A stretch of 64,000 bases of DNA from the NCBI GenBank assembly GCA_001780725.1, contig MFIM01000001.1, positions 83,642 to 147,641 of the forward strand, in the 5' to 3' direction. A model generated the notes under the pieces. The model was not told the DNA's origin. It worked only from the letters and a program-made list of their open reading frames with translations, and ran no database searches. Of the stretch, positions 5,253 to 23,540 are shown in pieces. The position numbers and the translations under genes were made by a program. The first letter of the stretch is position 1. The number at the start of each line of letters is the position of its first letter. This DNA is from Candidatus Giovannonibacteria bacterium RIFCSPLOWO2_02_FULL_45_28 (GTDB lineage: Bacteria > Patescibacteriota > Minisyncoccia > UBA11713 > 2-01-FULL-45-33).

Positions 5253-5667
5253 GTTTTTTGACAGATTCCGACATCAAAATATCTTCTTCAAAGGTTAACT
5301 TTCTTGTAAGCTTTCCTGCTCCCAAAATTTTGACTTTCGGAAATTTTCCGTTTCTCGCCGCAATAAGACCGCGGTCCGCCAAAAGCTTCACAGTCACTTT
5401 TTCTCCGTCAACGAATTTTTTATCCAAACCGCCTAGATTCACCACAGCCGGCTTCATGACAAACCCGCGCCTGAACTTATAACCGCGGCGTTTGTGGATC
5501 TTCTTTATAATATCACGAATTTGCGGGCGAATCCTGCGACCGGAGCGTGATTTCTGCCCCTTAATTCCCCTGCCCGAAAATGACCCGCGCTTCCCCCCGC
5601 GGCCAATGCGTTTGTGTTTTCTCCTGTTTGATTTTAACAAATTATGAGTTTGCATAATGACAACCAT
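5236..5667 (-). CDS. rplO: 50S ribosomal protein L15
   Basis: 143 aa. N-terminal KRIGRGGKRG..SGRG Gly/Arg-rich L15 motif. Confidence 0.9.
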   Translation of the reverse strand: MVVIMQTHNLLKSNRRKHKRIGRGGKRGSFSGRGIKGQKSRSGRRIRPQIRDIIKKIHKRRGYKFRRGFVMKPAVVNLGGLDKKFVDGEKVTVKLLADRGLIAARNGKFPKVKILGAGKLTRKLTFEEDILMSESVKKHVGKI

Positions 5668-5759
5668 GCTAGCTTAAAAGGGCGCGATAGACAAGGACTT
5701 GACACAAATAAACAGGTATGCTAGCTTTAAATTGGGCTTAGATTCCTTGAAAGGAGATT

Positions 5760-6251
5760 GTGATGATGGAAGAGAACCCGCCCTCTTTTGCGGTTTTAGT
5801 TGGGATAATCGTACTCTTTGGTTTGATTCTCATGGTCCTTTTCGGGCAGTCTTCTGTTTCAGATTCTCCAGATTCGCCATTTATCAAAGACAGGTTACCA
5901 TTGTTCTTCTCACCGGCTTTTGGGGACAAAGAAGACATTTTAGCTTACATTGACCTAGATGGCGACGGGAAACACGAAACTGTGTTCGGAAGTACTGGTA
6001 GGATTCACTGGGACTATGTAGGATATAATTTGTGGATATCACCCAACGAATCAAAAACCGGGCGCCGTCTGGTTTTGCAATTTAAAAAGCCTCCGGATAG
6101 GATATGTTTTACCGATATCGACCGTGACGGTATTCTGGATTTAGTTTTGGGCGTGGATGGACACACCCATGTAGCAAGAGGTGATGGTTCGGGAAATTTT
6201 AGGAGTCCCGAACTGATCAGTACTCAGAAAAGGCGAATATGTATCTCCTAA
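5760..6251 (+). CDS. Membrane-anchored FG-GAP/VCBS-like repeat protein
   Basis: 163 aa. AGGAG Shine-Dalgarno sequence 7 nt upstream. N-terminal TM helix. Two Asp/Gly-rich Ca-binding-type repeats (DLDGDGKHE, DIDRDGILDLVLGVDGH). Confidence 0.5.
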   Translation: MMMEENPPSFAVLVGIIVLFGLILMVLFGQSSVSDSPDSPFIKDRLPLFFSPAFGDKEDILAYIDLDGDGKHETVFGSTGRIHWDYVGYNLWISPNESKTGRRLVLQFKKPPDRICFTDIDRDGILDLVLGVDGHTHVARGDGSGNFRSPELISTQKRRICIS

Positions 6252-6356: not shown

Positions 6357-6722
6357 TTACTCATTGCCGCTTCGCATTCTAATCCGATGCGGAGAGAAAA
6401 CAACAATTGAGCGGCGCAAATCTTCGGTGGCAATTTCGTCTATCATCGGGCTGATCATTTTAAGCATTGCATTTACCGTAAGTTCATTTGGAAATCTCAA
6501 AATTACGATGCCGTTGTGGCTGCTGAGTGGAAATTTTGTTATATCCGCAAAACCTAAATCCGCAGTAAAAATAACTGCGTTTTTGCTTTGTGCAAATTTA
6601 AAAATTTCTTCGTCAGAGTGGCCACGAAGCCCCACATCTCTGACATCATAAACTTCGTAACCTTTCTCGCGAAAAAGTGGCGCCAATGACCTCGGCAAAT
6701 CCTCATCAACAACAACTCTCAT
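6357..6722 (-). CDS. DUF5615-type PIN-like putative toxin
   Basis: 121 aa. MRVVVDEDLP...FTADLGF pattern characteristic of DUF5615, which pairs with DUF433. Start overlaps the upstream gene's stop (ATGA). Confidence 0.55.
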   Translation of the reverse strand: MRVVVDEDLPRSLAPLFREKGYEVYDVRDVGLRGHSDEEIFKFAQSKNAVIFTADLGFADITKFPLSSHNGIVILRFPNELTVNAMLKMISPMIDEIATEDLRRSIVVFSPHRIRMRSGNE

Positions 6723-13278: not shown

Positions 13279-13758
13279 TTAAAATTCCGAAATTGTTTGG
13301 CCTTCTTTTAATTTAATGACGGCTTTTTTAAATCCCGACTTAATCCCCAAATTCGCGCCGCGGCGCCGCTGTTTCTCTCTCGGAGCCACAATGTTCACGG
13401 CCTCAACACCGACTCCGTAGCGGTCTTCTATGGCTTTTTTTAGCGAATTTTTATTCGCGCCGCCGGTGACTTTAAAAACATATCTGCCTTCGCCCAACAT
13501 CGTCGCTTTTTCTGAAATGTGCGGAGCAATAAGCAATCTGCGCGCAAGCTCGCTTTGGGATTTTGTACCGCCTCGCGCGCCAACAGATTTGTTTTGTTCG
13601 GAAGCAGAAAAACCCACCCCCTCGCCCCCTCCCTTGGTAAGGGAGGGGGAAGATGGAGGGATACCCCTGCCCCTTTCGCGACCAGAACCAAGAGCTTTAC
13701 GCGTTCTGCTTTCTTTCCTCCTCCATCCTCCGAAAATTTGCGATAAATTAAACGGCAT
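13279..13758 (-). CDS. rplW: 50S ribosomal protein L23 (with ~65-aa Gly/Arg-rich N-terminal extension of uncertain translation)
   Basis: The L23 core begins around ...LIAPHISEKA. The upstream in-frame extension overlaps the rplD stop and contains a GC-rich palindrome (13626-13650). Confidence 0.8.
   Translation of the reverse strand: MPFNLSQIFGGWRRKESRTRKALGSGRERGRGIPPSSPSLTKGGGEGVGFSASEQNKSVGARGGTKSQSELARRLLIAPHISEKATMLGEGRYVFKVTGGANKNSLKKAIEDRYGVGVEAVNIVAPREKQRRRGANLGIKSGFKKAVIKLKEGQTISEF
13626..13650. repeat. GC-rich perfect palindrome CCCCCTCCCTT-GGT-AAGGGAGGGGG
   Basis: 11-bp arms with a 3-nt loop. Member of a CCCTCCC/GGGAGGG hairpin family that also clusters at 54965-55078. Confidence 0.7.
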
Positions 13759-14422
13759 AAGTTTTTTCTAATTCTTTAATGCTTGACTGGTCCAAAACCA
13801 AATATTTATTATTCAAAAGCTCCGCAATATTTAAATTTCTCGGTTCAATGTAATTTACAAAAGGCAAGTTATGAAGTGGTCTTTCTATCCCAGCTTTTTT
13901 TGGCCCGCCTGCCGGACGGGCAGGCAAAGCCGCCAAAACTCTGCCGCCTTTAATCCCGATGTTATAAATTTTTGCGCTGTGGCGCAAATTTTTAAAAACG
14001 CCGAAAGCCTCTTTTGTTTTTGAGCTAGAAAGCCGAAAATCATCCAAAACAACAACTTCCTTATCTTTTAATTTTCTGGAAAGCAGGGAAAGAAGCGCGC
14101 CTCGCCGCATTTTTTTATTTATTTTAACCTGATAATTTCTTTCGTTTCTAGGCCCGTGAGAAACTCCTCCGCCGACCCAGAGCGGCGAGCGTATTGAACC
14201 GTGCCGTGCCCTTCCGGTGCCTTTTTGCCGCCAGGGTTTTATTCCTCCGCCGCGCACTTCGCCTCTGGTCTTGGTGTGCGCCCATGGGCGGCGCTTGTTT
14301 GCCATTTCGCCTTCATATACTTGTTTTACCAATGCCGGTTTCCACGCAACTCCGAAAATCCGCTCCGGCAGTTCCGCAGTTCCGGCTTTTTCTCCTTTTA
14401 TGTTGTATATTTCTGCTTTCAT
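13748..14422 (-). CDS. rplD: 50S ribosomal protein L4
   Basis: 224 aa. L4 family (GGGVSHGPRNERNYQ; KKMRRGAL). Confidence 0.9.
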   Translation of the reverse strand: MKAEIYNIKGEKAGTAELPERIFGVAWKPALVKQVYEGEMANKRRPWAHTKTRGEVRGGGIKPWRQKGTGRARHGSIRSPLWVGGGVSHGPRNERNYQVKINKKMRRGALLSLLSRKLKDKEVVVLDDFRLSSSKTKEAFGVFKNLRHSAKIYNIGIKGGRVLAALPARPAGGPKKAGIERPLHNLPFVNYIEPRNLNIAELLNNKYLVLDQSSIKELEKTYAV

Positions 14423-14554
14423 AAAAATAAAAATGGGCGGGTAAAGTCCCGCCTCGCGAAATACACGAGCAAATCAGGCCATTAACCCTCTTTTTTGCCA
14501 AACCTATGCGTTATATTTAAGCCTCTCACAAGTGATTTAGATATTAGCATGGCC

Positions 14555-14580: not shown

Positions 14581-14582
14581 TT

Positions 14583-14640
14583 ATCCTCTCACTTCCACCA
14601 AACTACCGCGGTGGCCGGGGATGGCGCCGGAGACGGCACC
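14583..14640. repeat. Duplicate of the rplC 3' end (direct repeat partner of 20095-20152)
   Basis: About 56 bp. Reverse-complement translation gives GAVSGAIPGHRGSLVEVRG*, identical to the L3 C-terminus. Only synonymous differences (CCC vs CCA, GGT vs GGC). Confidence 0.85.
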
Positions 14641-14788
14641 TTATATAGTCTTTTCTTGAGATAACTCAAATTTTTTGCAATTACAATTTTCATTTTAACA
14701 AAAATATGCGGGTGCGCGGAAAAGGGTAAGGTACTCTCTGTGAATAAAATACTTGTTGCTCTTTTTCTTTTTATTTGCTATCATTTGA

Positions 14789-15109
14789 ATGTATATGCAA
14801 ACGAAAGACATTCAAAAAATTAGAAAAGAATTGAATGATAGGAAAGCGATTCTCCGCTGCGCCAAGGAATTTAATATGGTGGGCGACCCGACGCGGCTCA
14901 AGATTTGCTATCTCTTGTGTCGGCATAAAGAGCTCGCGGTGGGCGAGATTTCAGAAATTATCGGCGTTTCTATTTCGGCTATTTCTCATACGCTCAAAAA
15001 GTTGCAAAAGGCTGGCATGGTTGAAAACCGCCGAGAATTCCGAACGGTCTATTACAAACTTAAACAAACGCCCCTTGCCGATATGCTCAAGGAGCGGCTT
15101 ACAACATAA
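14789..15109 (+). CDS. ArsR/SmtB-family metalloregulatory transcriptional repressor
   Basis: 106 aa. Winged HTH. CYLLC motif in the position of the ArsR metal-binding CVC site. Stop lies 4 nt before the MerA-like start. Confidence 0.75.
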   Translation: MYMQTKDIQKIRKELNDRKAILRCAKEFNMVGDPTRLKICYLLCRHKELAVGEISEIIGVSISAISHTLKKLQKAGMVENRREFRTVYYKLKQTPLADMLKERLTT

Positions 15110-15113
15110 CTTT

Positions 15114-16517
15114 ATGCAAAAATTTGACCTTATCATCATTGGTGGCGGTGCAGGGGCGTTTGCAGCGGCAATCCGCGCTAACGAGCTTAAAGCAAAAACT
15201 GCGCTCGTGAACGCTGGGCTTCCGCTCGGCGGCACTTGTGTCAATGTCGGGTGCGTCCCGTCAAAAACACTTCTCTATGCCGGTGAAATTTTGCACCACT
15301 CAAAACATCACGGCGTTGCCGGTGTTGAGCTTGAAGTGAAAAATTTTGATTTTCAGAAAGTCGTGCAAGACGAACTTTCTCTAGTGGAAAAATTACGCCA
15401 AGAAAAATACGAGAAAGTGCTAAAAAATTTAGAGTATGTAACGGCAATCGAGGGAAAAGCAAAATTTATTTCTCAAAATGAGGTGGAGGTGAACGGCGAA
15501 AAATTGAGTGCGGAAAAATTTATCATTGCCGCAGGCTCAACCGCCAGTGTACCGCCGATTGAGGGAATACGGGAAGCTGGTTTCATCACCCATATCGAAG
15601 CTCTTAAAATGCCAAAACAACCGAAAGAGTTGGTTGTCATCGGTGCGGGGCCTCTTGGTTTGGAATTTGCTCAAATGTTTGCGCGTTTTGGCACAAAAGT
15701 AACCATTTTACAGCGCGGCGATTCAATTTTTCCGCACTCTGAAAAGGCACTCACCGACCGCCTCGCCGAGATACTTGCAAAAGAAGGAATTACTATCAAA
15801 ACAAATGTTGAGGTAAAAAGCGCGCGCAAAGAGAGCGATAAAAGAATTGTTTCGTATCAAATCGGCGAGGCGCAAGAAGAAGTTTCCGCTGATGAAATAC
15901 TTTTGGCGGCAGGCAAAACGCCAAACACACAGGGACTTGGCCTTGATATCGCTGGCATTGAAATTGACAAGCGGCAAGCTGTTGCTGTCAATCAAAATTT
16001 TCAAACATCCAATAAGAACATCTTTGCGGTGGGCGATGTTACAAACGGTCCCTTGCGGCTTGAGCCGACCGCTGGACGCGAAGGCACGCTTGCCGCGGAA
16101 AACGCGCTCAAAGACACAACACTTTCCATTGATTACAACGCTGTACCTTACACCATTTTTACCGATCCCCAGCTTGCTGGTGTCGGCTTTACCGAAGACG
16201 AGCAAATGAAGCAGGTGGGCGTTTGCGCGTGCCGCACGGTTTCGTTTGAAAATGTGCCGAAAGCAATCATCATGCGCCGCACCGAAGGACTTATCAAAAT
16301 GGCGATTCATCCGCAAACAAAACAAATTTTGGGCGTTCACATTCTCGCACCAAACGCCGGGGAACTTATCGCCGAAGCGATGATGCTGGTCAAGAACGAA
16401 AACACGATTGACGATGTGGTGAACTCCTTGCCAATGTTCCCGACGCTATCCGAGGCGATAAAAATTGCCGCATTGTCATTTACCAAAGACATTTCTAAAT
16501 TAAGCTGTTGCGTATGA
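15114..16517 (+). CDS. merA: Mercuric reductase core (MerA-like class I pyridine nucleotide-disulfide oxidoreductase, no NmerA domain)
   Basis: 467 aa. FAD site GGGAGAFAAA. Redox-active GGTCVNVGCVPSK identical to the Tn501 MerA active site. C-terminal vicinal Cys pair ...KDISKLSCCV, as in MerA (KQLSCCAG). TPNT..GL and FTDPQ segments are shared with MerA. The 93-codon upstream extension of the ORF call (14835) is an overlapping-frame artefact. Confidence 0.8.
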   Translation: MQKFDLIIIGGGAGAFAAAIRANELKAKTALVNAGLPLGGTCVNVGCVPSKTLLYAGEILHHSKHHGVAGVELEVKNFDFQKVVQDELSLVEKLRQEKYEKVLKNLEYVTAIEGKAKFISQNEVEVNGEKLSAEKFIIAAGSTASVPPIEGIREAGFITHIEALKMPKQPKELVVIGAGPLGLEFAQMFARFGTKVTILQRGDSIFPHSEKALTDRLAEILAKEGITIKTNVEVKSARKESDKRIVSYQIGEAQEEVSADEILLAAGKTPNTQGLGLDIAGIEIDKRQAVAVNQNFQTSNKNIFAVGDVTNGPLRLEPTAGREGTLAAENALKDTTLSIDYNAVPYTIFTDPQLAGVGFTEDEQMKQVGVCACRTVSFENVPKAIIMRRTEGLIKMAIHPQTKQILGVHILAPNAGELIAEAMMLVKNENTIDDVVNSLPMFPTLSEAIKIAALSFTKDISKLSCCV

Positions 16518-17023
16518 ATAAACTTCAAGAAGTATATAGTGCAGTTAAGCAAGTGCTTGGAGAACAAATGTATGGTTTTATCGTTCTTTCGTTTGCGCTT
16601 TTATTTTTTGGATTGTTTGTTTTTATTCCTGTTGCCACGACTCCCGGCAATACGCTTGCGTTTCAACTATCAATTTTCCGCGTGCAAGATTACTTCTTGA
16701 TGGTATTTCTCGCTTTTTTGGTGGGGCTTAATTTTTCAATGAATATCTATGTTTGGAGAAAACGAAGACAATCGGTCAATATTTCTAAATCTGCGGCAAG
16801 CGGCACAGCGGCAGGATTCGGAGGAGCTTTTGCCGCAATTGTGGGAACCGCTACTTGCGCGTCGTGTCTTGCTTCTCTATTCGGTATTATGGGTTTGGGA
16901 ATCGGAAGTGTTGCGTTTGTTTTGAAGTATCAAACCCTCTTTCTTCTTGGCGCAATAGCCCTTGTGGTTATTTCCCTTTACTTTACCGCTAGAAAAATAA
17001 ACAGAGTATGCAATTCATGTTAA
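16508..17023 (+). CDS. Integral membrane protein with CxxC and C-terminal CxxC motifs (candidate metal transport component)
   Basis: 171 aa, ~4 TM helices. TATCASCL within a TM segment and a CNSC C-terminus. Start overlaps the MerA-like stop. Confidence 0.4.
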   Translation: MRMNKLQEVYSAVKQVLGEQMYGFIVLSFALLFFGLFVFIPVATTPGNTLAFQLSIFRVQDYFLMVFLAFLVGLNFSMNIYVWRKRRQSVNISKSAASGTAAGFGGAFAAIVGTATCASCLASLFGIMGLGIGSVAFVLKYQTLFLLGAIALVVISLYFTARKINRVCNSC

Positions 17024-17038
17024 AATGACATTAAATCT

Positions 17039-17632
17039 ATGGATAGAAATTTATTTCTTATCGCCGCTTTAATCATTGTAGCTGGAGGTGTCTATTTTTA
17101 TATCACCAACCAACTCGGCAAATCCCTGACAAACAATACTGCCTATAACGAAACTGGTACGGTTCAAACGGCATTAGCCGCTAAATTTGATTATTTATCT
17201 CAAAACGGAAACTCTTCTTGTTCCGCTTCGTTTAAGGAATCAATTCCGTCGTTACCCGCTGGAACGCGGCTTCAAGGTTCTTGTTGTTCGCCAATGGACT
17301 TTCATCGGTATACTGAACAGGTTGAAGGATTAAAAAAGTATTCGGACATTCCAGAAATTCCACCAGACCCGTATGATATTGAGGCAGGATTGGCTAAAAA
17401 ATTGTTGGGCTACTATGATGTGGAACTCACGCCCGAAAAACAGAAAGCATACGACTACGCTATGCTTAACTCAAACGAGAAAGGACCTTGCTGCTGCAAA
17501 TGCTGGCGTTGGTATGTCTACGGCGGATTAGGTAAATACCTTATTAAAAATCATGGCTTCACCGGCGAGCAAGTAACTGAGGTATGGAATCTCTCTGATG
17601 GTTGTGGCGGCGACAACGAGCATACTCATTAA
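17039..17632 (+). CDS. N-terminally membrane-anchored Cys-rich extracytoplasmic protein
   Basis: 197 aa. One N-terminal TM helix. Clusters SCS, GSCCSP, GPCCCKCWRW, DGCGGDNEHTH. Confidence 0.4.
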   Translation: MDRNLFLIAALIIVAGGVYFYITNQLGKSLTNNTAYNETGTVQTALAAKFDYLSQNGNSSCSASFKESIPSLPAGTRLQGSCCSPMDFHRYTEQVEGLKKYSDIPEIPPDPYDIEAGLAKKLLGYYDVELTPEKQKAYDYAMLNSNEKGPCCCKCWRWYVYGGLGKYLIKNHGFTGEQVTEVWNLSDGCGGDNEHTH

Positions 17633-17647
17633 AACTTAAGTAGAGTT

Positions 17648-18622
17648 ATGACATCTAAAATTCGTAACAGCTTAATCATTTTTTCTTTCCTTCTCCTCTC
17701 GATCACCATCATCGGCATTTTTTGGCTTGTTACCACGCCCGGAGCGCAAGCTGGCCTCATTTTCGCCTACGCAGCCGGACTTTCCATGATTTTTCTTCCT
17801 TGCACCCTGCCTTTAGTATTCGTCATTGTGCCTCTGGCAATGAAGCAATCACCGCTCAAAGGGCTTACGATGGCATTACTTTTCGGATTGGGACTTGCCA
17901 TTACGCTTAGTATCTACGGCGCGGCTGTCGCTTGGGTAGGCGGATATATTGGCATGAACGCCATTATTCGCTGGATGTTTGGAATTGCCGGAGCAATGGC
18001 ATTTGTTTTTGGACTCTCCGAATTAAAACTTCTTGCCTTGCGCCTGCCTTTTATGGCAAAAGTGCTGCCGACTTCGCTTCAAAAAGGCGGCAATTACTCA
18101 AAATCGTTTTTCATGGGCCTTTTCTTGGGCAATGCCGGCGTGGGCTGTCCCAATCCCGCTTTCTATGTACTACTTACATATATTGCAACCGTAGGAACAG
18201 TAAGCGACGGTGTTCTTTTGGGAGTGGTGCATGGCTTGGGAAGAGCCACGCCACTTATCTTTCTTGTCATCCTTGCCATTCTTGGCATCAACACCATGAA
18301 TTGGGTCAGCCGCTCGCAGGTAAAAGTTGAACGGTTTATGGCGTGGGGGTTGGTCGGCATAGGCGCATATCTTTTTCAATATCTGCCGTTTAAGATGGCA
18401 TTTTGGGAGGGCTCAATCTTTCATGTTATCTGGAACAACATCGTGAGCAAAACCTTGCCGAGCATAGCCGAAAGCGAGAGAATTGAAGAACTGCTGAACA
18501 TTCAAGGAGGCACCGCCACCATTTTGCCGTGGGTGTTTATTGGGCTTATGGTCGGAGCGGTGATTATTTGGGACGCGTTTGTTCAACGTAAAAAGTTATC
18601 ACAAAATCAAGTTATACAATGA
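17648..18622 (+). CDS. CcdA/DsbD-family thiol-disulfide transporter (cytochrome c biogenesis-type membrane protein)
   Basis: 324 aa polytopic. The two conserved TM cysteines (FLPCTLP and GVGCPNP) typical of the DsbD beta-domain/CcdA family. Confidence 0.7.
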   Translation: MTSKIRNSLIIFSFLLLSITIIGIFWLVTTPGAQAGLIFAYAAGLSMIFLPCTLPLVFVIVPLAMKQSPLKGLTMALLFGLGLAITLSIYGAAVAWVGGYIGMNAIIRWMFGIAGAMAFVFGLSELKLLALRLPFMAKVLPTSLQKGGNYSKSFFMGLFLGNAGVGCPNPAFYVLLTYIATVGTVSDGVLLGVVHGLGRATPLIFLVILAILGINTMNWVSRSQVKVERFMAWGLVGIGAYLFQYLPFKMAFWEGSIFHVIWNNIVSKTLPSIAESERIEELLNIQGGTATILPWVFIGLMVGAVIIWDAFVQRKKLSQNQVIQ

Positions 18623-18798
18623 ACACAATGTTTTCAATAATCCAAGTCGCTTACGCCCACGAAGAAGGGGCGAGTACCGCAACAGCCGACAACACCCTCG
18701 GTCCCATTTTAGCGTTGGTTATTATTATCTTGGCCATAGTCGTAGCCAAGCGCATTAAAAAGATTAATAAAGAAAATCATTATGAACAAAGAAATTAA
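18619..18798 (+). CDS. Small membrane protein (59 aa)
   Basis: Not in the ORF track. ATG overlaps the CcdA-like stop (ATGA). Hydrophilic N-terminus followed by one TM helix (ILALVIIILAIVVA). Confidence 0.3.
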   Translation: MNTMFSIIQVAYAHEEGASTATADNTLGPILALVIIILAIVVAKRIKKINKENHYEQRN

Positions 18799-19048
18799 AA
18801 TGACCCTCGTTACCCGCGAAGGGTGCGTTCATTGCGCGCAGACCAAAGAAATTCTTAAAAAGATACAGCCCGAGTATCCCGAACTTGCGGTGGAAGAAAT
18901 AGATATGACCACGCCCCAGGGGCAAGAACTTATCAGTAAATACGGAATTATGTCGAGTCCGGGGATTATTATTAACGGCGAGCTGTTCTCTATAGGCGGA
19001 ACTACGGAAAAGGAATTAAGAGAGAAATTTGTCGCATTAAGGAGTTAA
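18782..19048 (+). CDS. Glutaredoxin/thioredoxin-fold CxxC protein
   Basis: 88 aa. CVHC redox motif near the N-terminus. Glutaredoxin-like YruB/NrdH architecture. True start may be the internal Met at ~18800. Confidence 0.7.
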   Translation: MNKEIKMTLVTREGCVHCAQTKEILKKIQPEYPELAVEEIDMTTPQGQELISKYGIMSSPGIIINGELFSIGGTTEKELREKFVALRS

Positions 19049-19425
19049 ATTTTGTAGCCCGCCAAAAAATCCGCCAGCCCAAGCGAGGGCGCGGCGGAAG
19101 GAGGGTGTGGGAGAATTTCGCCGCACCCGAGCGGAAACATCAGCACGCCTCCGCCTGCTCGTTTAGAGCAGAACGCCGAAAGCAAAATTTTCTTTTCCTT
19201 TAGAAGAAAAAATTGGTGGCGCGCGCAAAAAAAGAATCGTAAAGAAAATTTTGCTTGAGGCGTAGCCCCGCCTTTGGCGGGGCGCGGAGGCGTTCGTCAG
19301 AGTAAGACATTTTTGCTAAAATAGGTTCGAGCGTGGTTGTATAGATACACCATGTTATAATAAAAACATCGGCTCGAACCATATTTTAATTTTGGGGGAA
19401 GAAAATTTTTTTTCCATGTTAGTTA

Positions 19426-19851
19426 TCAAACCTTAATTGGGATAATTTCAAAAGTATTATGGTCGCGTTCAAACTTTATTCGGTAATTATCAAAAAAACC
19501 GATTTGCCCCAATAAAGCATGAACTGCCAGGTTGGGCACAAAACCAACTTCAACTTTTACTTTGTCCGTGAATTCTTTGATTTTGATATCAACGTCAATA
19601 AAATGTGTTTCCATCGCTTTGCCATCTATGCCCGTTACGCTCTCTTTCTTTTTGGCTTTGTCCAGATTTATACCAACGTATTTTGCAAATTCAGCGTTTA
19701 TTAAAATATTATCTGCCCCAGAATCCACCAGCGCTCCAAAAATAGAAACATTCTTTAAAGGTCCAAACAACTCAATCTCTATAATTGGTCGTCTCCTGTG
19801 AGGAGCTGTTGGTTTTGATGGATCAAATACAGCAGAGTACTGATATTTCAT
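19426..19851 (-). CDS. Retropepsin-like (clan AA) aspartic protease
   Basis: 141 aa. ALVDSGADNILI catalytic motif. Confidence 0.6.
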   Translation of the reverse strand: MKYQYSAVFDPSKPTAPHRRRPIIEIELFGPLKNVSIFGALVDSGADNILINAEFAKYVGINLDKAKKKESVTGIDGKAMETHFIDVDIKIKEFTDKVKVEVGFVPNLAVHALLGQIGFFDNYRIKFERDHNTFEIIPIKV

Positions 19852-20075
19852 AAACTCGAAGGCGCCAAATTTGCTCCGAGCGGTAATACCTTCGAAAACG
19901 CCACTCTGCTTTGAAGCACACTGTCTATTTTAGAAGCCGTTTCCTCAAGAGTTTCTCCACTAGCTATAATCTTTGTTCGGTCAGGAGAAAGCGCCACCCA
20001 TTTATTTTCGTATGGCTTAAGAATTGAGCTTAAATCGGGCATTTTTACAATGTTTTCTTCTTGTGTTTTTGACAT
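19848..20075 (-). CDS. Small DUF5678-like protein partnered with the retropepsin-like gene
   Basis: 75 aa. KWVALSPDRTKIIASGETLEE pattern. Overlaps the downstream protease gene start. Confidence 0.45.
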   Translation of the reverse strand: MSKTQEENIVKMPDLSSILKPYENKWVALSPDRTKIIASGETLEETASKIDSVLQSRVAFSKVLPLGANLAPSSL

Positions 20076-20094
20076 ATGCTTAAATATAACACAC

Positions 20095-20682
20095 TTATCC
20101 TCTCACTTCCACCAAACTGCCGCGGTGGCCTGGGATGGCGCCGGAGATGGCCATAAGATTTTTTTCGGGAATGATTTTGATGATTTTGAGATTGCTGACG
20201 GTGACGCGTTCCGCACCCATGTGCCCGGCCATGCGCATGCCTTTTAAAACTCTTTGCGGCCAAGTTGCGCCGATTGATCCCGGCTCGCGCTCGGAATGTT
20301 TTTGTCCGTGAGTTCTAGGTCCGCCGTGGAAACCATGACGTTTTACAACGCCCTGAAAACCTTTGCCTTTTGAAACGCCACTGACATTTACAAAGTCGCC
20401 CTCCTCAAAAGCGGTTGCCTCAATTTTGTCGCCCACATTTAAAGCGCTGGTTTTAAACTCGCGAAAATACTGAAAATTTCCCAATTTTTTCTGCGGCTTT
20501 TCTACGTTTTTTCCCTTTTTCGCGCTAAACCCGACCTGTACGGCAACGTATCCGTCCTTTTCTTCAGATTTTTTTTGCGTAACAAAAATGGGGCCGGCTT
20601 CCAGCCAAGTAACCGGTTGAACCCGTCCATTACCGTCAAAAATTTGCGACATCTCAATTTTTCTCGCCAAAATAAATTTCAT
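20095..20682 (-). CDS. rplC: 50S ribosomal protein L3
   Basis: 195 aa. L3 family. Directly downstream of rpsJ. Confidence 0.95.
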   Translation of the reverse strand: MKFILARKIEMSQIFDGNGRVQPVTWLEAGPIFVTQKKSEEKDGYVAVQVGFSAKKGKNVEKPQKKLGNFQYFREFKTSALNVGDKIEATAFEEGDFVNVSGVSKGKGFQGVVKRHGFHGGPRTHGQKHSEREPGSIGATWPQRVLKGMRMAGHMGAERVTVSNLKIIKIIPEKNLMAISGAIPGHRGSLVEVRG

Positions 20683-20683
20683 A

Positions 20684-21025
20684 TTACACCTTTATCTCAA
20701 TGTCCACCCCTGCCGGCAAGTTAAGATTGGTCATCGCCTCCACAACTTTCGGGGTGGGATCTAAAACATCAATCAAGCGCTTGTGAACCCGCATTTCAAA
20801 CTGCTCACGGGCATTTTTGTGGACAAACGAAGAACGATTAACCGTATATTTGCGAATTTCAGTAGGCAACGGCACCGGTCCTGCCAGCTCCGCTCCGTAC
20901 CGTAGGGCAGTATCTACTATTTGCCTCACTGACGAATCCAAAATTTTGTGGTCATACGCCCTTACGCGTATCCTCAATTTTTGCTTTTCCTCAACTGCTT
21001 TTTCTTTTGGCTTGGCTTTGGCCAT
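20684..21025 (-). CDS. rpsJ: 30S ribosomal protein S10
   Basis: 113 aa. [14 protein letters not shown]...VPLPT... S10 signature. Confidence 0.95.
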
Positions 21026-23234: not shown

Positions 23235-23540
23235 GTGCTTGTCCGCAAAACTCATAGACATTCTTTAGGCCAGCGCATTGACGCGTTTTTTATTGAAATT
23301 ATGGAAGCGATTGCGGTTGCGAGTTTTCTTTCGCGAGAAGAAAAACTGCCTTATATCAGATTGGCTATGCGAAAAACGGACGCGCTGAAAATACTGCTTA
23401 TGGTACTTTGGGAAACCAAATCTTTGGACAATAAAAAATATGCCGCGTTGTCGATCAAAATAATCGAAATTGGAAAAATGCTGGGCGGATGGAGCGGACA
23501 GATACAAAAACAAAACTCTCCCAAAACGGGAGAGAAATGA
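23235..23540 (+). CDS. avd: Four-helix-bundle protein of the 23S rRNA IVS / DGR accessory variability determinant (Avd) family
   Basis: 101 aa (start may be further upstream at a non-ATG codon). LVRKTHRHSLGQRIDAF... and C-terminal IIEIGKMLGGWSGQ resemble Bordetella phage bAvd (IAEVGRILGSWIAR). Confidence 0.65.
   Translation: MLVRKTHRHSLGQRIDAFFIEIMEAIAVASFLSREEKLPYIRLAMRKTDALKILLMVLWETKSLDNKKYAALSIKIIEIGKMLGGWSGQIQKQNSPKTGEK

Follow-up and report, generated by a model that had tools for sequence, protein, structure and literature searches.

Mercuric reductases (MerA) are known from Giovannonibacteria, Daviesbacteria, Peregrinibacteria and other Candidate Phyla Radiation (CPR) bacteria of the Rifle aquifer, and the CPR clades, K12-K14, have been described as laterally acquired and as sister to the MerAs of Thermococci and Archaeoglobi (PMC8261052). 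We analyzed a 64,000-nucleotide (nt) stretch of DNA, here called the window, from Candidatus Giovannonibacteria bacterium RIFCSPLOWO2_02_FULL_45_28 (contig MFIM01000001.1, positions 83,642 to 147,641), which comes from the same source, the CPR of the Rifle aquifer including Giovannonibacteria, and which carries a merA gene in a cluster of seven genes between the ribosomal protein genes rplC and rplD. We conclude, at a probability of roughly 0.6, that positions 14638-20094 of the window are a horizontally acquired island for resistance to Hg(II), built of three modules, that interrupts the S10 operon at the 3' end of rplC. Judged by its sequence, the window MerA is one of the CPR MerAs whose clade was described in 2021. 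The passages of that study that bear on these enzymes are confined to MerA and MerB, and its main text does not use the terms ArsR, DsbD or MerH; the accessory genes, the regulator, the proteins that we call P3 and P4, the triad of thiol-disulfide genes and the insertion at rplC are not described in those passages.

Operons that share parts of this layout have been described from other bacteria. The mer region of the Mycobacterium marinum plasmid pMM23 encodes an ArsR-type regulator, a core-only MerA, MerH, MerT and MerB. The pI258-type operon of Staphylococcus aureus, an organism with a single-membrane envelope, has the order merR, TlpA-family gene, CcdA, merT, merA, merB, and is without MerP. 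A table in a 2025 review lists TrxA-domain and CcdA-domain 'mercury transporters' as well as an ArsR-domain MerR in actinomycetes (PMC12195606). Thus, MerA in CPR bacteria, an ArsR-type mer regulator with a MerA that lacks the NmerA domain (pMM23), and CcdA and thioredoxin (Trx)-fold genes in a mer operon (pI258-type) were already known, and the unusualness that a preliminary description of this DNA had claimed for the cluster was put too strongly.

Seven co-directional genes in the S10 operon

The listing of open reading frames (ORFs) has seven co-directional genes on the + strand, at the positions at which the preliminary description had placed them:

14789-15109, + strand: arsR, ArsR/SmtB-family metalloregulator, 106 amino acids (aa)
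15114-16517, + strand: merA, core-only mercuric reductase MerA without NmerA, 467 aa
16514-17023, + strand: P3, membrane protein with four long helices, candidate Hg(II) transporter, 169 aa from its ATG
17039-17632, + strand: P4, membrane-anchored Cys-rich protein, 197 aa
17648-18622, + strand: P5, long-form CcdA/DsbD-type thiol-disulfide electron transporter, 324 aa
18619-18798, + strand: P6, 59-aa peptide with a signal-peptide-like N-terminus and a membrane anchor
18782-19048, + strand: P7, thioredoxin-fold CVHC protein, 88 aa

The same genes were called by independent gene callers on at least 23 contigs from separate assemblies, so the cluster is no assembly artefact; at least 23 contigs in NCBI, JGI and ENA assemblies encode an identical MerA. 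The motifs that had been quoted from the cluster proteins (GGTCVNVGCVPSK, the KLSCCV tail, GSCCSP, GPCCCKCWRW and CVHC) are all present. There are 4-nt ATGA overlaps between merA and P3 and between P5 and P6, and a 17-nt overlap between P6 and P7; P3 is 171 aa long if it is read from a TTG at 16508. In contrast to the earlier claim that merA overlaps the arsR stop, the stop codon of arsR ends at 15109 and the ATG of merA lies at 15114, leaving a 4-nt gap, and only a spurious upstream extension of the merA frame, to 560 aa, overlaps arsR. The tight spacing and the overlaps, together with a conserved candidate promoter block upstream of arsR (see below), were counted in support of reading the genes from arsR to P7 as one operon.

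The cluster is flanked by rplC (20095-20682, - strand) and rplD (13748-14422, - strand), with S10 (20684-21025) and tuf beyond rplC, and L23, L2 and S19 following rplD on the other side; the mer genes lie on the strand opposite to the ribosomal genes. NmerA, MerP, MerC and MerR are all missing from the cluster.

We compared the cluster with the two described operons gene by gene. It shares with pMM23 an ArsR-type regulator in place of MerR, a MerA without NmerA that ends in CC (on pMM23 it has 472 aa and 34% identity to the window MerA) and, immediately after merA, a membrane transporter some 170 aa long, where the window has P3. The pMM23 transporter, MerH, is however of the MerC family (Pfam 52 bits), unlike P3; pMM23 carries MerB, which the window cluster does not; its annotated mer region has no CcdA/Trx triad and no P4-like gene; and its ArsR is 36% identical to the window ArsR over 76 residues, with the window residues C24, C40 and C44 all unmatched. 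With the S. aureus operon the cluster shares CcdA and Trx-fold genes close to a transporter and MerA. The S. aureus operon differs in having a true MerR and a MerA with NmerA, its Trx-fold protein is a 161-aa TlpA/Redoxin-type protein whereas P7 has 88 aa and no signal peptide, its 226-aa CcdA has no significant BLAST similarity to the 324-aa P5, and no equivalents of P3, P4 or P6 are found among its annotated genes.

The oxidoreductase is a MerA by sequence criteria

By every sequence criterion that we tested, the 467-aa oxidoreductase is a MerA. It scored 533.4 bits against the NCBIfam equivalog model TIGR02053 (cut-off 454.45) and fell under the cut-offs of the models for lipoamide dehydrogenase (384.4 bits; cut-off 408.8), glutathione reductase (315 bits; cut-off 480), RclA, and the hypothiocyanous acid (HOSCN) reductase that NCBIfam also names MerA (254 bits; cut-off 650). 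Its top matches in the PDB are the mercuric reductases 5x1y, 4ywo and 1zk7, with lipoamide dehydrogenases about 30-85 bits below the MerA structures; 4ywo, the MerA of Metallosphaera sedula, is also core-only and likewise ends in LSCCV. In alignments with 5x1y and 4ywo, the redox pair C42/C47 (within GGTCVNVGCVPSK) and the C-terminal pair C465/C466 (within KLSCCV) fall on the corresponding residues, which confirms the MerA-type active site and CC tail that were recognized at the outset; the absence of an NmerA domain was likewise borne out.

In a neighbor-joining (NJ) tree of 464 columns, which included Escherichia coli Lpd, Gor and SthA, CPR paralogues, and the MerAs of S. aureus, Tn21-type elements and M. 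marinum, the CPR MerA clade was recovered in 100 of 100 bootstraps. The CC-tailed sequences, that is, the CPR clade and the tested MerAs together, were monophyletic in 85 of 100 replicates, with Lpd, Gor, SthA and the CPR's own paralogues outside, so that the expected placement of the enzyme apart from LpdA and glutathione reductase-type enzymes held. The best plasmid match of the window MerA is on a plasmid of Thermococcus peptonophilus (47% identity), where merA adjoins HMA-domain and YHS-domain genes; this match and the tree reproduce the published placement of the CPR MerAs. Moreover, CPR MerAs of the same clade elsewhere adjoin a true MerT (42 bits; cut-off 32.9), HMA-domain proteins (found in five other CPR MerA loci) and genes with weak or precomputed Pfam matches to MerC and MerE.

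Two other kinds of gene were seen next to CPR MerAs. A dual-specificity or protein tyrosine phosphatase (PTP)-like phosphatase (Pfam DSPc, 62 bits) is present in 8 of 47 CPR MerA loci (L016, L017, L023, L028, L032, L047, L049 and L051), and a representative has an HCxxGxxR motif and a C-terminal CC; in a further locus, L157, a PTP-family gene (5336-5809) lies directly 3' of merA. The phosphatase gene is a recurrent accessory gene of mer operons. A fusion of glucose-6-phosphate dehydrogenase and 6-phosphogluconate dehydrogenase, of about 790 aa, adjoins MerA and P3 in locus L014 (1529-3877) and P3 in locus L156 (3369-5735), and might supply MerA with NADPH locally.

The insertion between rplC and rplD

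The position of the cluster between rplC and rplD is accounted for by a duplication of the 3' end of rplC, which bounds the insert on both sides. The features concerned are:

14581-14637, - strand: left direct repeat, an orphan rplC 3' end comprising the last 17 codons and the stop
20095-20151, - strand: right direct repeat, the functional 3' end of the intact rplC, beginning exactly at the stop codon
19426-19851, - strand: retropepsin-like aspartic protease gene (Pfam gag-asp_proteas, 34 bits; cut-off 28)
19848-20075, - strand: DUF5678-like gene (DUF5678, 20.9 bits, sub-threshold)

The two repeats, each 57 nt long and 5,514 nt from the other, share 54 of their 57 positions. The left one, 158 nt upstream of rplD, translates to SGAIPGHRGSLVEVRG followed by a stop, which is identical to the C-terminus of L3. 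Between them lie 5,457 bp (14638-20094) with the seven mer genes, a 60-aa ORF (19200-19382), and the retropepsin-like and DUF5678-like genes, for neither of which we found a linkage to mer genes in the other loci examined. Repeats of this kind, judged from their sequence, are the signature of an insertion at the 3' end of a gene in which the coding end is regenerated. Thus, the location inside the S10 operon that had been noted as striking is confirmed, and the insertion with its duplicated rplC 3' end explains it.

Other marks that we looked for at the island were negative. Its base composition is not deviant, and no tRNA genes or Rfam families were found at its borders. A 23-nt inverted repeat after P7 (19173-19263) folds no better than shuffled sequence (z = -1.6), and a 16-nt inverted match between 14507-14522 and 20078-20093 is at chance level.

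In other CPR genomes the cassette is found at non-ribosomal sites; in the complete Giovannonibacteria genome CP066687, for example, MerA, MerC and P4 lie beside clpB. MerAs that are 67-90% identical occur at unrelated genomic sites across CPR phylum-level lineages (Magasanik-, Harrison-, Nealson-, Kerfeld-, Sacchari- and Peregrinibacteria), which points to frequent exchange of mer genes within the CPR.

Two contigs resemble the window only in part. L003 (beyond window position 19352) and L005 (beyond 20375 and before 9902) are 99.8% identical to the window across the island and differ in their flanks, and the L3 and S10 proteins of L005 are only 66% and 62% identical to those of the window. 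The points of divergence are unrelated to the repeats, and we treated these contigs as chimeric assemblies or strain recombinants instead of as independent insertions.

P3 and P4, two Cys-rich membrane proteins

P3 is modeled by AlphaFold2 (AF2) as four long helices (pLDDT 65) and has two CxxC pairs, C115/C118 in helix 3 and C166/C169 at the C-terminus. Among 91 diverse members of its family (24-51% identical to the window P3), C115 is invariant, and C118, C166 and C169 are each at least 90% conserved. The family comprises 436 clusters at 50% identity, nearly all of 160-180 aa, and is covered by no Pfam or NCBIfam model; a Foldseek search of the P3 model against the PDB gave nothing with E < 1. 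The positive-inside rule would put the RKRR loop (residues 83-86) and the C-terminus on the cytoplasmic side and the PGN..FQL loop, which is conserved, on the outside.

With this topology, the four Cys of P3 would be arranged as in MerT, MerF and MerC, one pair in a membrane helix and one on the cytoplasmic side, and the C-terminal half of P3 has the same layout (Cys-pair helix, helix, cytoplasmic Cys pair) as MerF and helices 1-2 of MerT from Tn21/Tn501. P3 differs from the MerT/MerP, MerF and MerC systems in its two extra N-terminal helices, its external PGN..FQL loop, and its CxxC rather than CC pairs. The linkage of P3 to MerA is strong: in 21 of 47 CPR MerA loci the two are no more than 5 kb apart. 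In locus L157 the order is ArsR, MerC (weak match), MerA, PTP-like, MerE, P3, Redoxin. In the window, P3 sits where MerT, MerC or MerE sit in sister loci.

P4 has an N-terminal anchor helix followed by a helical ectodomain (AF2, pLDDT 70). Eight of its Cys are invariant (C61, C82, C83, C151, C152, C153, C155 and C189), as are H195, H197 and many aromatic residues. It has about 1,970 homologues (clusters at 90% identity); identity ranges from 64 to 99% among the 120 listed, and the organisms named for these span many CPR lineages. We found no family model, PDB sequence or PDB fold that matches P4; neither P3 nor P4 gave a match when its profile was searched against PDB sequences, and Pfam MerC (PF03203) matched neither. 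No HMA domain was detected in any island protein, and the model of P4 is all-helical. Thus, compared to MerP, P4 is a membrane-anchored, all-helical protein with eight Cys, and not an HMA ferredoxin fold.

The genes for P3-type and P4 proteins travel together. Among 34 P4 loci with at least 1.5 kb of sequence on both sides, 27 have a P3-type gene within 3 kb, always on the same strand and usually directly adjacent. The most frequent other neighbors of P4 (83 loci) are DsbA-like Thioredoxin_4 proteins (27), His-rich exoproteins (21) and a GCPFM-motif protein of 142 aa (21); also frequent are 500-aa proteins matching the P3 profile, ArsR, and BlaI/BlaR-like pairs. From these neighborhoods, P3-type and P4 proteins appear to be a CPR-wide module that was recruited into some mer operons. 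The suggestion that the Cys-rich membrane proteins are a hand-off route for Hg(II) is upheld to the extent that they are plausible candidates for it.

A CcdA-peptide-thioredoxin triad

P5 scored 37.2 bits against Pfam DsbD_TM (PF02683; cut-off 27.1), as had been expected of the transporter, and its Cys52 (LPCTLP) and Cys167 (GCPNP) are kept in 7 of 7 orthologues; it is classed on this basis as a CcdA/DsbD-type transmembrane thiol-disulfide electron transporter. It has at least 2,000 relatives, each about 320 aa long, of which those with an organism name are from CPR or unclassified bacteria and some are labeled CcdA in their sources; a tblastn search of P5 against plasmids gave no match. P7 scored 41.9 bits against Pfam Thioredoxin_3 (PF13192; cut-off 24.8) and fell below the cut-off of the MJ0307-type thioredoxin equivalog (44 versus 92.75). 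Its CVHC is kept in 6 of 6 orthologues and it has no signal peptide, and it is probably the cytoplasmic electron donor to P5.

The N-terminus of P6 ends in AYA|HEEG and is followed by an acidic stretch, a membrane anchor and a basic tail. Homologous small ORFs between CcdA and Trx genes occur in loci L009, L088, L110, L158 and L159, with the common layout AHE(E/L)G ... LGPI-TM-KR, in which TM is the membrane segment. The predicted A-x-A|HE cleavage is shared by P6 (18619-18798) and the peptides of L158 (5977-6174) and L159 (5953-6204); it would leave His, which could serve as a metal ligand, as the first residue of the mature external peptide.

The order CcdA-peptide-Trx recurs at 73-94% identity in the mer contexts of L009, L088 and L110. 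It is also seen around 322-aa CcdAs, about 50% identical to P5, at metal-related loci of unrelated CPR genomes: L158 has a YHS/TRASH protein and MFP/ABC export genes, and L159 an HMA P-type ATPase, a CDF transporter, a DsbA-like protein and a cupredoxin. In both, an 84-aa Thioredoxin_3 protein with the same CxxC and long conserved stretches follows CcdA and the small ORF. A CcdA-type gene (shorter forms included) or a gene for a Trx-fold (TlpA/Grx-type) protein is present within 5 kb of MerA in 13 of 47 CPR loci. Thus, CcdA, small peptide and Trx appear to form a conserved, separable CPR triad of metal-homeostasis loci, with or without MerA.

DsbD-family transporters of the ScsB/ScsC and DsbD (CutA2) systems carry electrons from cytoplasmic thioredoxin to a thiol protein of the envelope and protect against thiophilic metals. 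The CPR triad is like them in its linkage to metal-transporter genes and to DsbA-like Thioredoxin_4 proteins. It differs from DsbD and ScsB in that P5 is a CcdA-type core without their periplasmic domains, and from the Scs/DsbD relays in that the presumed client, P4, is not of thioredoxin fold and that the association here is with reduction of Hg(II).

The regulator and the region upstream of arsR

The identification of the regulator as an ArsR/SmtB-type protein instead of a MerR is borne out by its scores of 53.3 bits against Pfam HTH_5 (PF01022; cut-off 22) and 78.5 bits against NCBIfam NF033788 (cut-off 55). Its closest solved relatives are SmtB, CadC and CzrA. The window ArsR has ELAVGEI where its PDB relative Lmo1102 has a CVC motif, at a position that we take, from R773 ArsR, to be the classic helix-3 metal site; that site thus appears to be absent. 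Three Cys, C24, C40 and C44, are kept in 33 of 35 mer-linked CPR orthologues.

We aligned the 170 nt 5' of arsR from 18 CPR arsR-merA loci (ArsR identity 62-97%), which revealed the following elements:

14740-14797, + strand: candidate arsR-merA promoter/operator
14740-14748, + strand: GTGAATAAA, part of the candidate promoter/operator
14756-14761, + strand: -35-like TTGCTC, with a 17-nt spacer to the -10
14779-14784, + strand: -10-like TATCAT of the candidate promoter
14777-14790, + strand: almost invariant block GCTATCATTTGAAT, which holds the palindrome CATTtgAATG and directly adjoins the start codon

The block TATCATTTGAA is intact at 17 of 18 loci, with TTG(C/T) 17-18 nt upstream and diverged sequence around it. 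In the near-invariant block TATCATTTGAAT (17 of 18 loci), the -10-like TATCAT is followed by the palindrome, and a GTG(G/A)ATAAA motif lies about 40 nt farther upstream. We infer that this region is a promoter that overlaps its operator and is followed by only a very short leader or none. The first ATG of arsR is not kept in the other loci, and the true start may be the second, at 14795. At default stringency no inverted repeat was detected in the intergenic region upstream of arsR, and a generic scan for promoters and terminators was only modestly above shuffled sequence and gave nothing informative.

A proposed mechanism and its alternatives

Under the reading that we favor, that of a mercury-resistance island, ArsR and MerA form a core for sensing and reduction, P3 and P4 a second module, and P5, P6 and P7 a third. 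ArsR, with its three conserved Cys, would probably act as a repressor on an operator that overlaps the -10 element and be released by Hg(II). On the outer face, the CC and CCC motifs of P4 would bind Hg(II); P3 would take it up on the membrane pair C115/C118, relay it by thiol exchange to the cytoplasmic pair C166/C169 and hand it to the flexible C465/C466 of MerA, and MerA would reduce it to volatile Hg(0) with C42/C47, FAD and NAD(P)H. P7 would reduce P5, which would carry electrons outward and re-reduce the external thiols of P4 and P3, keeping them able to bind Hg. Since P4 is the only Cys-containing exoprotein in the cluster, it is likely to be the client of P5. P6 may be an accessory or metal-binding subunit. 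The sequence data show what the genes are, that the enzyme is of the MerA family, which Cys are conserved, how the modules are linked and where the insertion left its scars; from these, the response of ArsR to Hg(II), the path of Hg(II) through P4 and P3, and the role of P4 as client of the CcdA relay are inferred. This logic is like that of MerT and MerP of Tn21/Tn501, from an external thiol protein to a membrane Cys pair, a cytoplasmic pair and MerA, and by analogy P4 and P3 most likely work like MerP and MerT. We propose more tentatively, and at somewhat less than even odds, that the P3-type and P4 proteins are a CPR-wide system for capture and translocation of thiophilic metals, kept reduced by the triad, that is analogous to MerT/MerP, unrelated to them by descent, and was recruited as the entry route of Hg(II) to MerA.

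Several findings weigh against this interpretation. With respect to the island, we detected no recombinase or integrase in nine scanned island proteins (the 60-aa ORF was outside the scan) and no empty site among the 24 contigs examined that encode the identical L4, all of which carry the insert. The CPR MerAs are known from sequence alone. In the window MerA, Y99 is kept in a KYE motif, and the position of the second catalytic Tyr is occupied by Phe (PMFPT), as in M. sedula 4ywo (HMFPT); the two active-site tyrosines are Y194 and Y535 in Tn501 numbering, and the Phe is at the equivalent of Y535. The P3/P4 module is far commoner than MerA, which is near P4 in just 7 of 83 P4-centered loci, and its primary role may not be mercury-specific. 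The models of P3 and P4 are of moderate confidence (pLDDT 65 and 70) and matched nothing known.

Moreover, P3 is not demonstrably homologous, by sequence comparison, to any known Hg transporter. It scored 21.9 bits (E = 2e-4) against Pfam MerT (PF02411), below the cut-off of 32.9. The earlier statement that MerT, MerP and MerC are not recognizable in the cluster thus stands for matches above threshold, and needs the qualification that the C-terminal half of P3 gives this sub-threshold match. The match aligns P3 residues 97-169 with MerT positions 7-76, and runs exactly from the Cys-pair helix to the cytoplasmic Cys pair. Such weak matches are found for 8 of 38 close and 2 of 91 diverse P3 members, and comparisons of P3 with the MerTs of S. 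aureus and M. marinum by hhalign gave probabilities of about 1%. With matches that are sub-threshold and confined to one sub-branch, and with the negative hhalign result, the idea that P3 is a diverged MerT was not established. We also considered P3 as a homologue of M. marinum MerH, the 171-aa product of the gene after merA on pMM23, and rejected this, as the two show no similarity (BLAST E = 11; hhalign probability 0.3%) and MerH is of the MerC family.

As a separate observation on the MerT model, the pI258-type MerT of S. aureus (L161, 2245-2628; AMRFinder identity 100%) itself has no PF02411 match at E < 0.01. Since this reference MerT fails the model, failing PF02411 is weak evidence against a MerT-like function in single-membrane lineages.

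The best surviving alternative, which we nevertheless consider unlikely, is that MerA handles Hg(II) that leaks into the cell, and that P3/P4 and the triad, co-selected on the island, give a general protection or repair of envelope thiols against Hg, Cu and Cd. Such a role would fit the likeness to the Scs/DsbD copper-tolerance systems and the triads at loci with Cu/Zn-type transporters, as well as the occurrence of P4 and P3-type genes mostly without MerA, beside DsbA-like proteins (27 of 83), His-rich exoproteins and BlaI/BlaR-like sensors; furthermore, a P3-type gene within 5 kb is missing from 26 of 47 CPR MerA loci, and P4 is present in only 3 of the 47. However, an external buffer would have no need of the membrane and cytoplasmic Cys pairs of P3, which correspond to the topology of a thiol-relay transporter, and P3 is both translationally coupled to merA by the ATGA overlap and found in the position of MerT, MerC or MerE in sister loci.

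It is quite improbable, in our estimation, that the P3-type and P4 proteins are a CPR thiol-disulfide oxidoreductase, such as a stand-in for DsbB or VKOR that works with DsbA-like proteins, and are passengers of the island unconnected with mercury chemistry. P3 superficially resembles DsbB and VKOR in its four helices and two Cys pairs. By the positive-inside rule, however, its second pair lies at the cytoplasmic C-terminus, whereas DsbB and VKOR have theirs in an external loop. A DsbA-like protein is indeed the commonest neighbor of P4, but the island pairs the module with a reducing (CcdA) and not an oxidizing pathway, and hitch-hiking would not readily account for the repeated entry of P3 into mer operons (21 of 47 loci; L157).

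Finally, the option raised in the preliminary description, that this MerA homologue works with the CcdA/Trx relay on another substrate (a disulfide, a persulfide or another metal), is very improbable: although the CPR MerAs are known only from their sequences, some 'MerA-like' enzymes act on other substrates (for example, the HOSCN reductase named MerA in NCBIfam) and Phe replaces the second catalytic Tyr, the enzyme scores 533 bits on the MerA equivalog and 254 on the HOSCN reductase model (cut-off 650), has the C-terminal CC that defines the hand-off of Hg(II), shares its Phe with the solved M. sedula MerA 4ywo, belongs to a clade whose neighbors are a true MerT, HMA-domain proteins and weak or precomputed MerC and MerE matches, and is separable from the triad, which occurs without MerA elsewhere and whose P7, lacking a signal peptide, fits a cytoplasmic donor to CcdA rather than a partner of MerA.

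We found no earlier description of the P3 and P4 families and their pairing, the CcdA-peptide-Trx triad, the arsR promoter block or the rplC insertion scar. CPR genomes are tiny and hold many genes of unknown function, and the mercury-resistance reading ties two large uncharacterized CPR families, P3 and P4, to thiol-based handling of Hg(II). If the more tentative proposal of a CPR-wide capture and translocation system is true, P3 and P4 would constitute a third kind of mercury uptake route and about 2,000 'hypothetical' CPR proteins would gain a function. Near-identical mer modules (MerA 67-90%) appear to circulate between CPR phylum-level lineages, and a resistance island can apparently enter the middle of the S10 operon through duplication of the rplC 3' end; rplD and the genes downstream of it are thereby cut off from the S10 promoter region, which bears on the transcription of ribosomal genes in CPR bacteria. 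CPR bacteria of aquifers would also have to be counted as potential reducers of Hg(II).

Other features of the ribosomal gene region

The region around the island has further features. Between tuf and fusA there is a bAvd-like gene (23235-23540, + strand; PF22296 36.6 bits, cut-off 40), followed by a 71-aa ORF; bAvd proteins are accessory proteins of diversity-generating retroelements, and no reverse transcriptase was seen near 23235-23540. The L23 ORF (13279-13758, - strand) can be read as a 159-aa protein, in which case a Gly/Arg-rich N-terminal extension, about 85 aa long, overlaps the rplD end; a length of 73 aa is given instead by some gene callers, so its start is ambiguous. A GC-rich hairpin with six GC pairs and a T-run (14436-14453, - strand) occupies part of the spacer that separates the orphan rplC end from rplD, 14 nt upstream of the start codon of rplD; it is terminator-like and stands before a gene that needs to be expressed, and it may be a regulatory or attenuator element. 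A PIN_10/DUF5615 plus DUF433 gene pair (6357-6722, - strand, and the 75-aa gene upstream of it) interrupts the spc region. From this pair and the one at 19426-20075, the ribosomal super-operon appears to be unusually tolerant of insertions.

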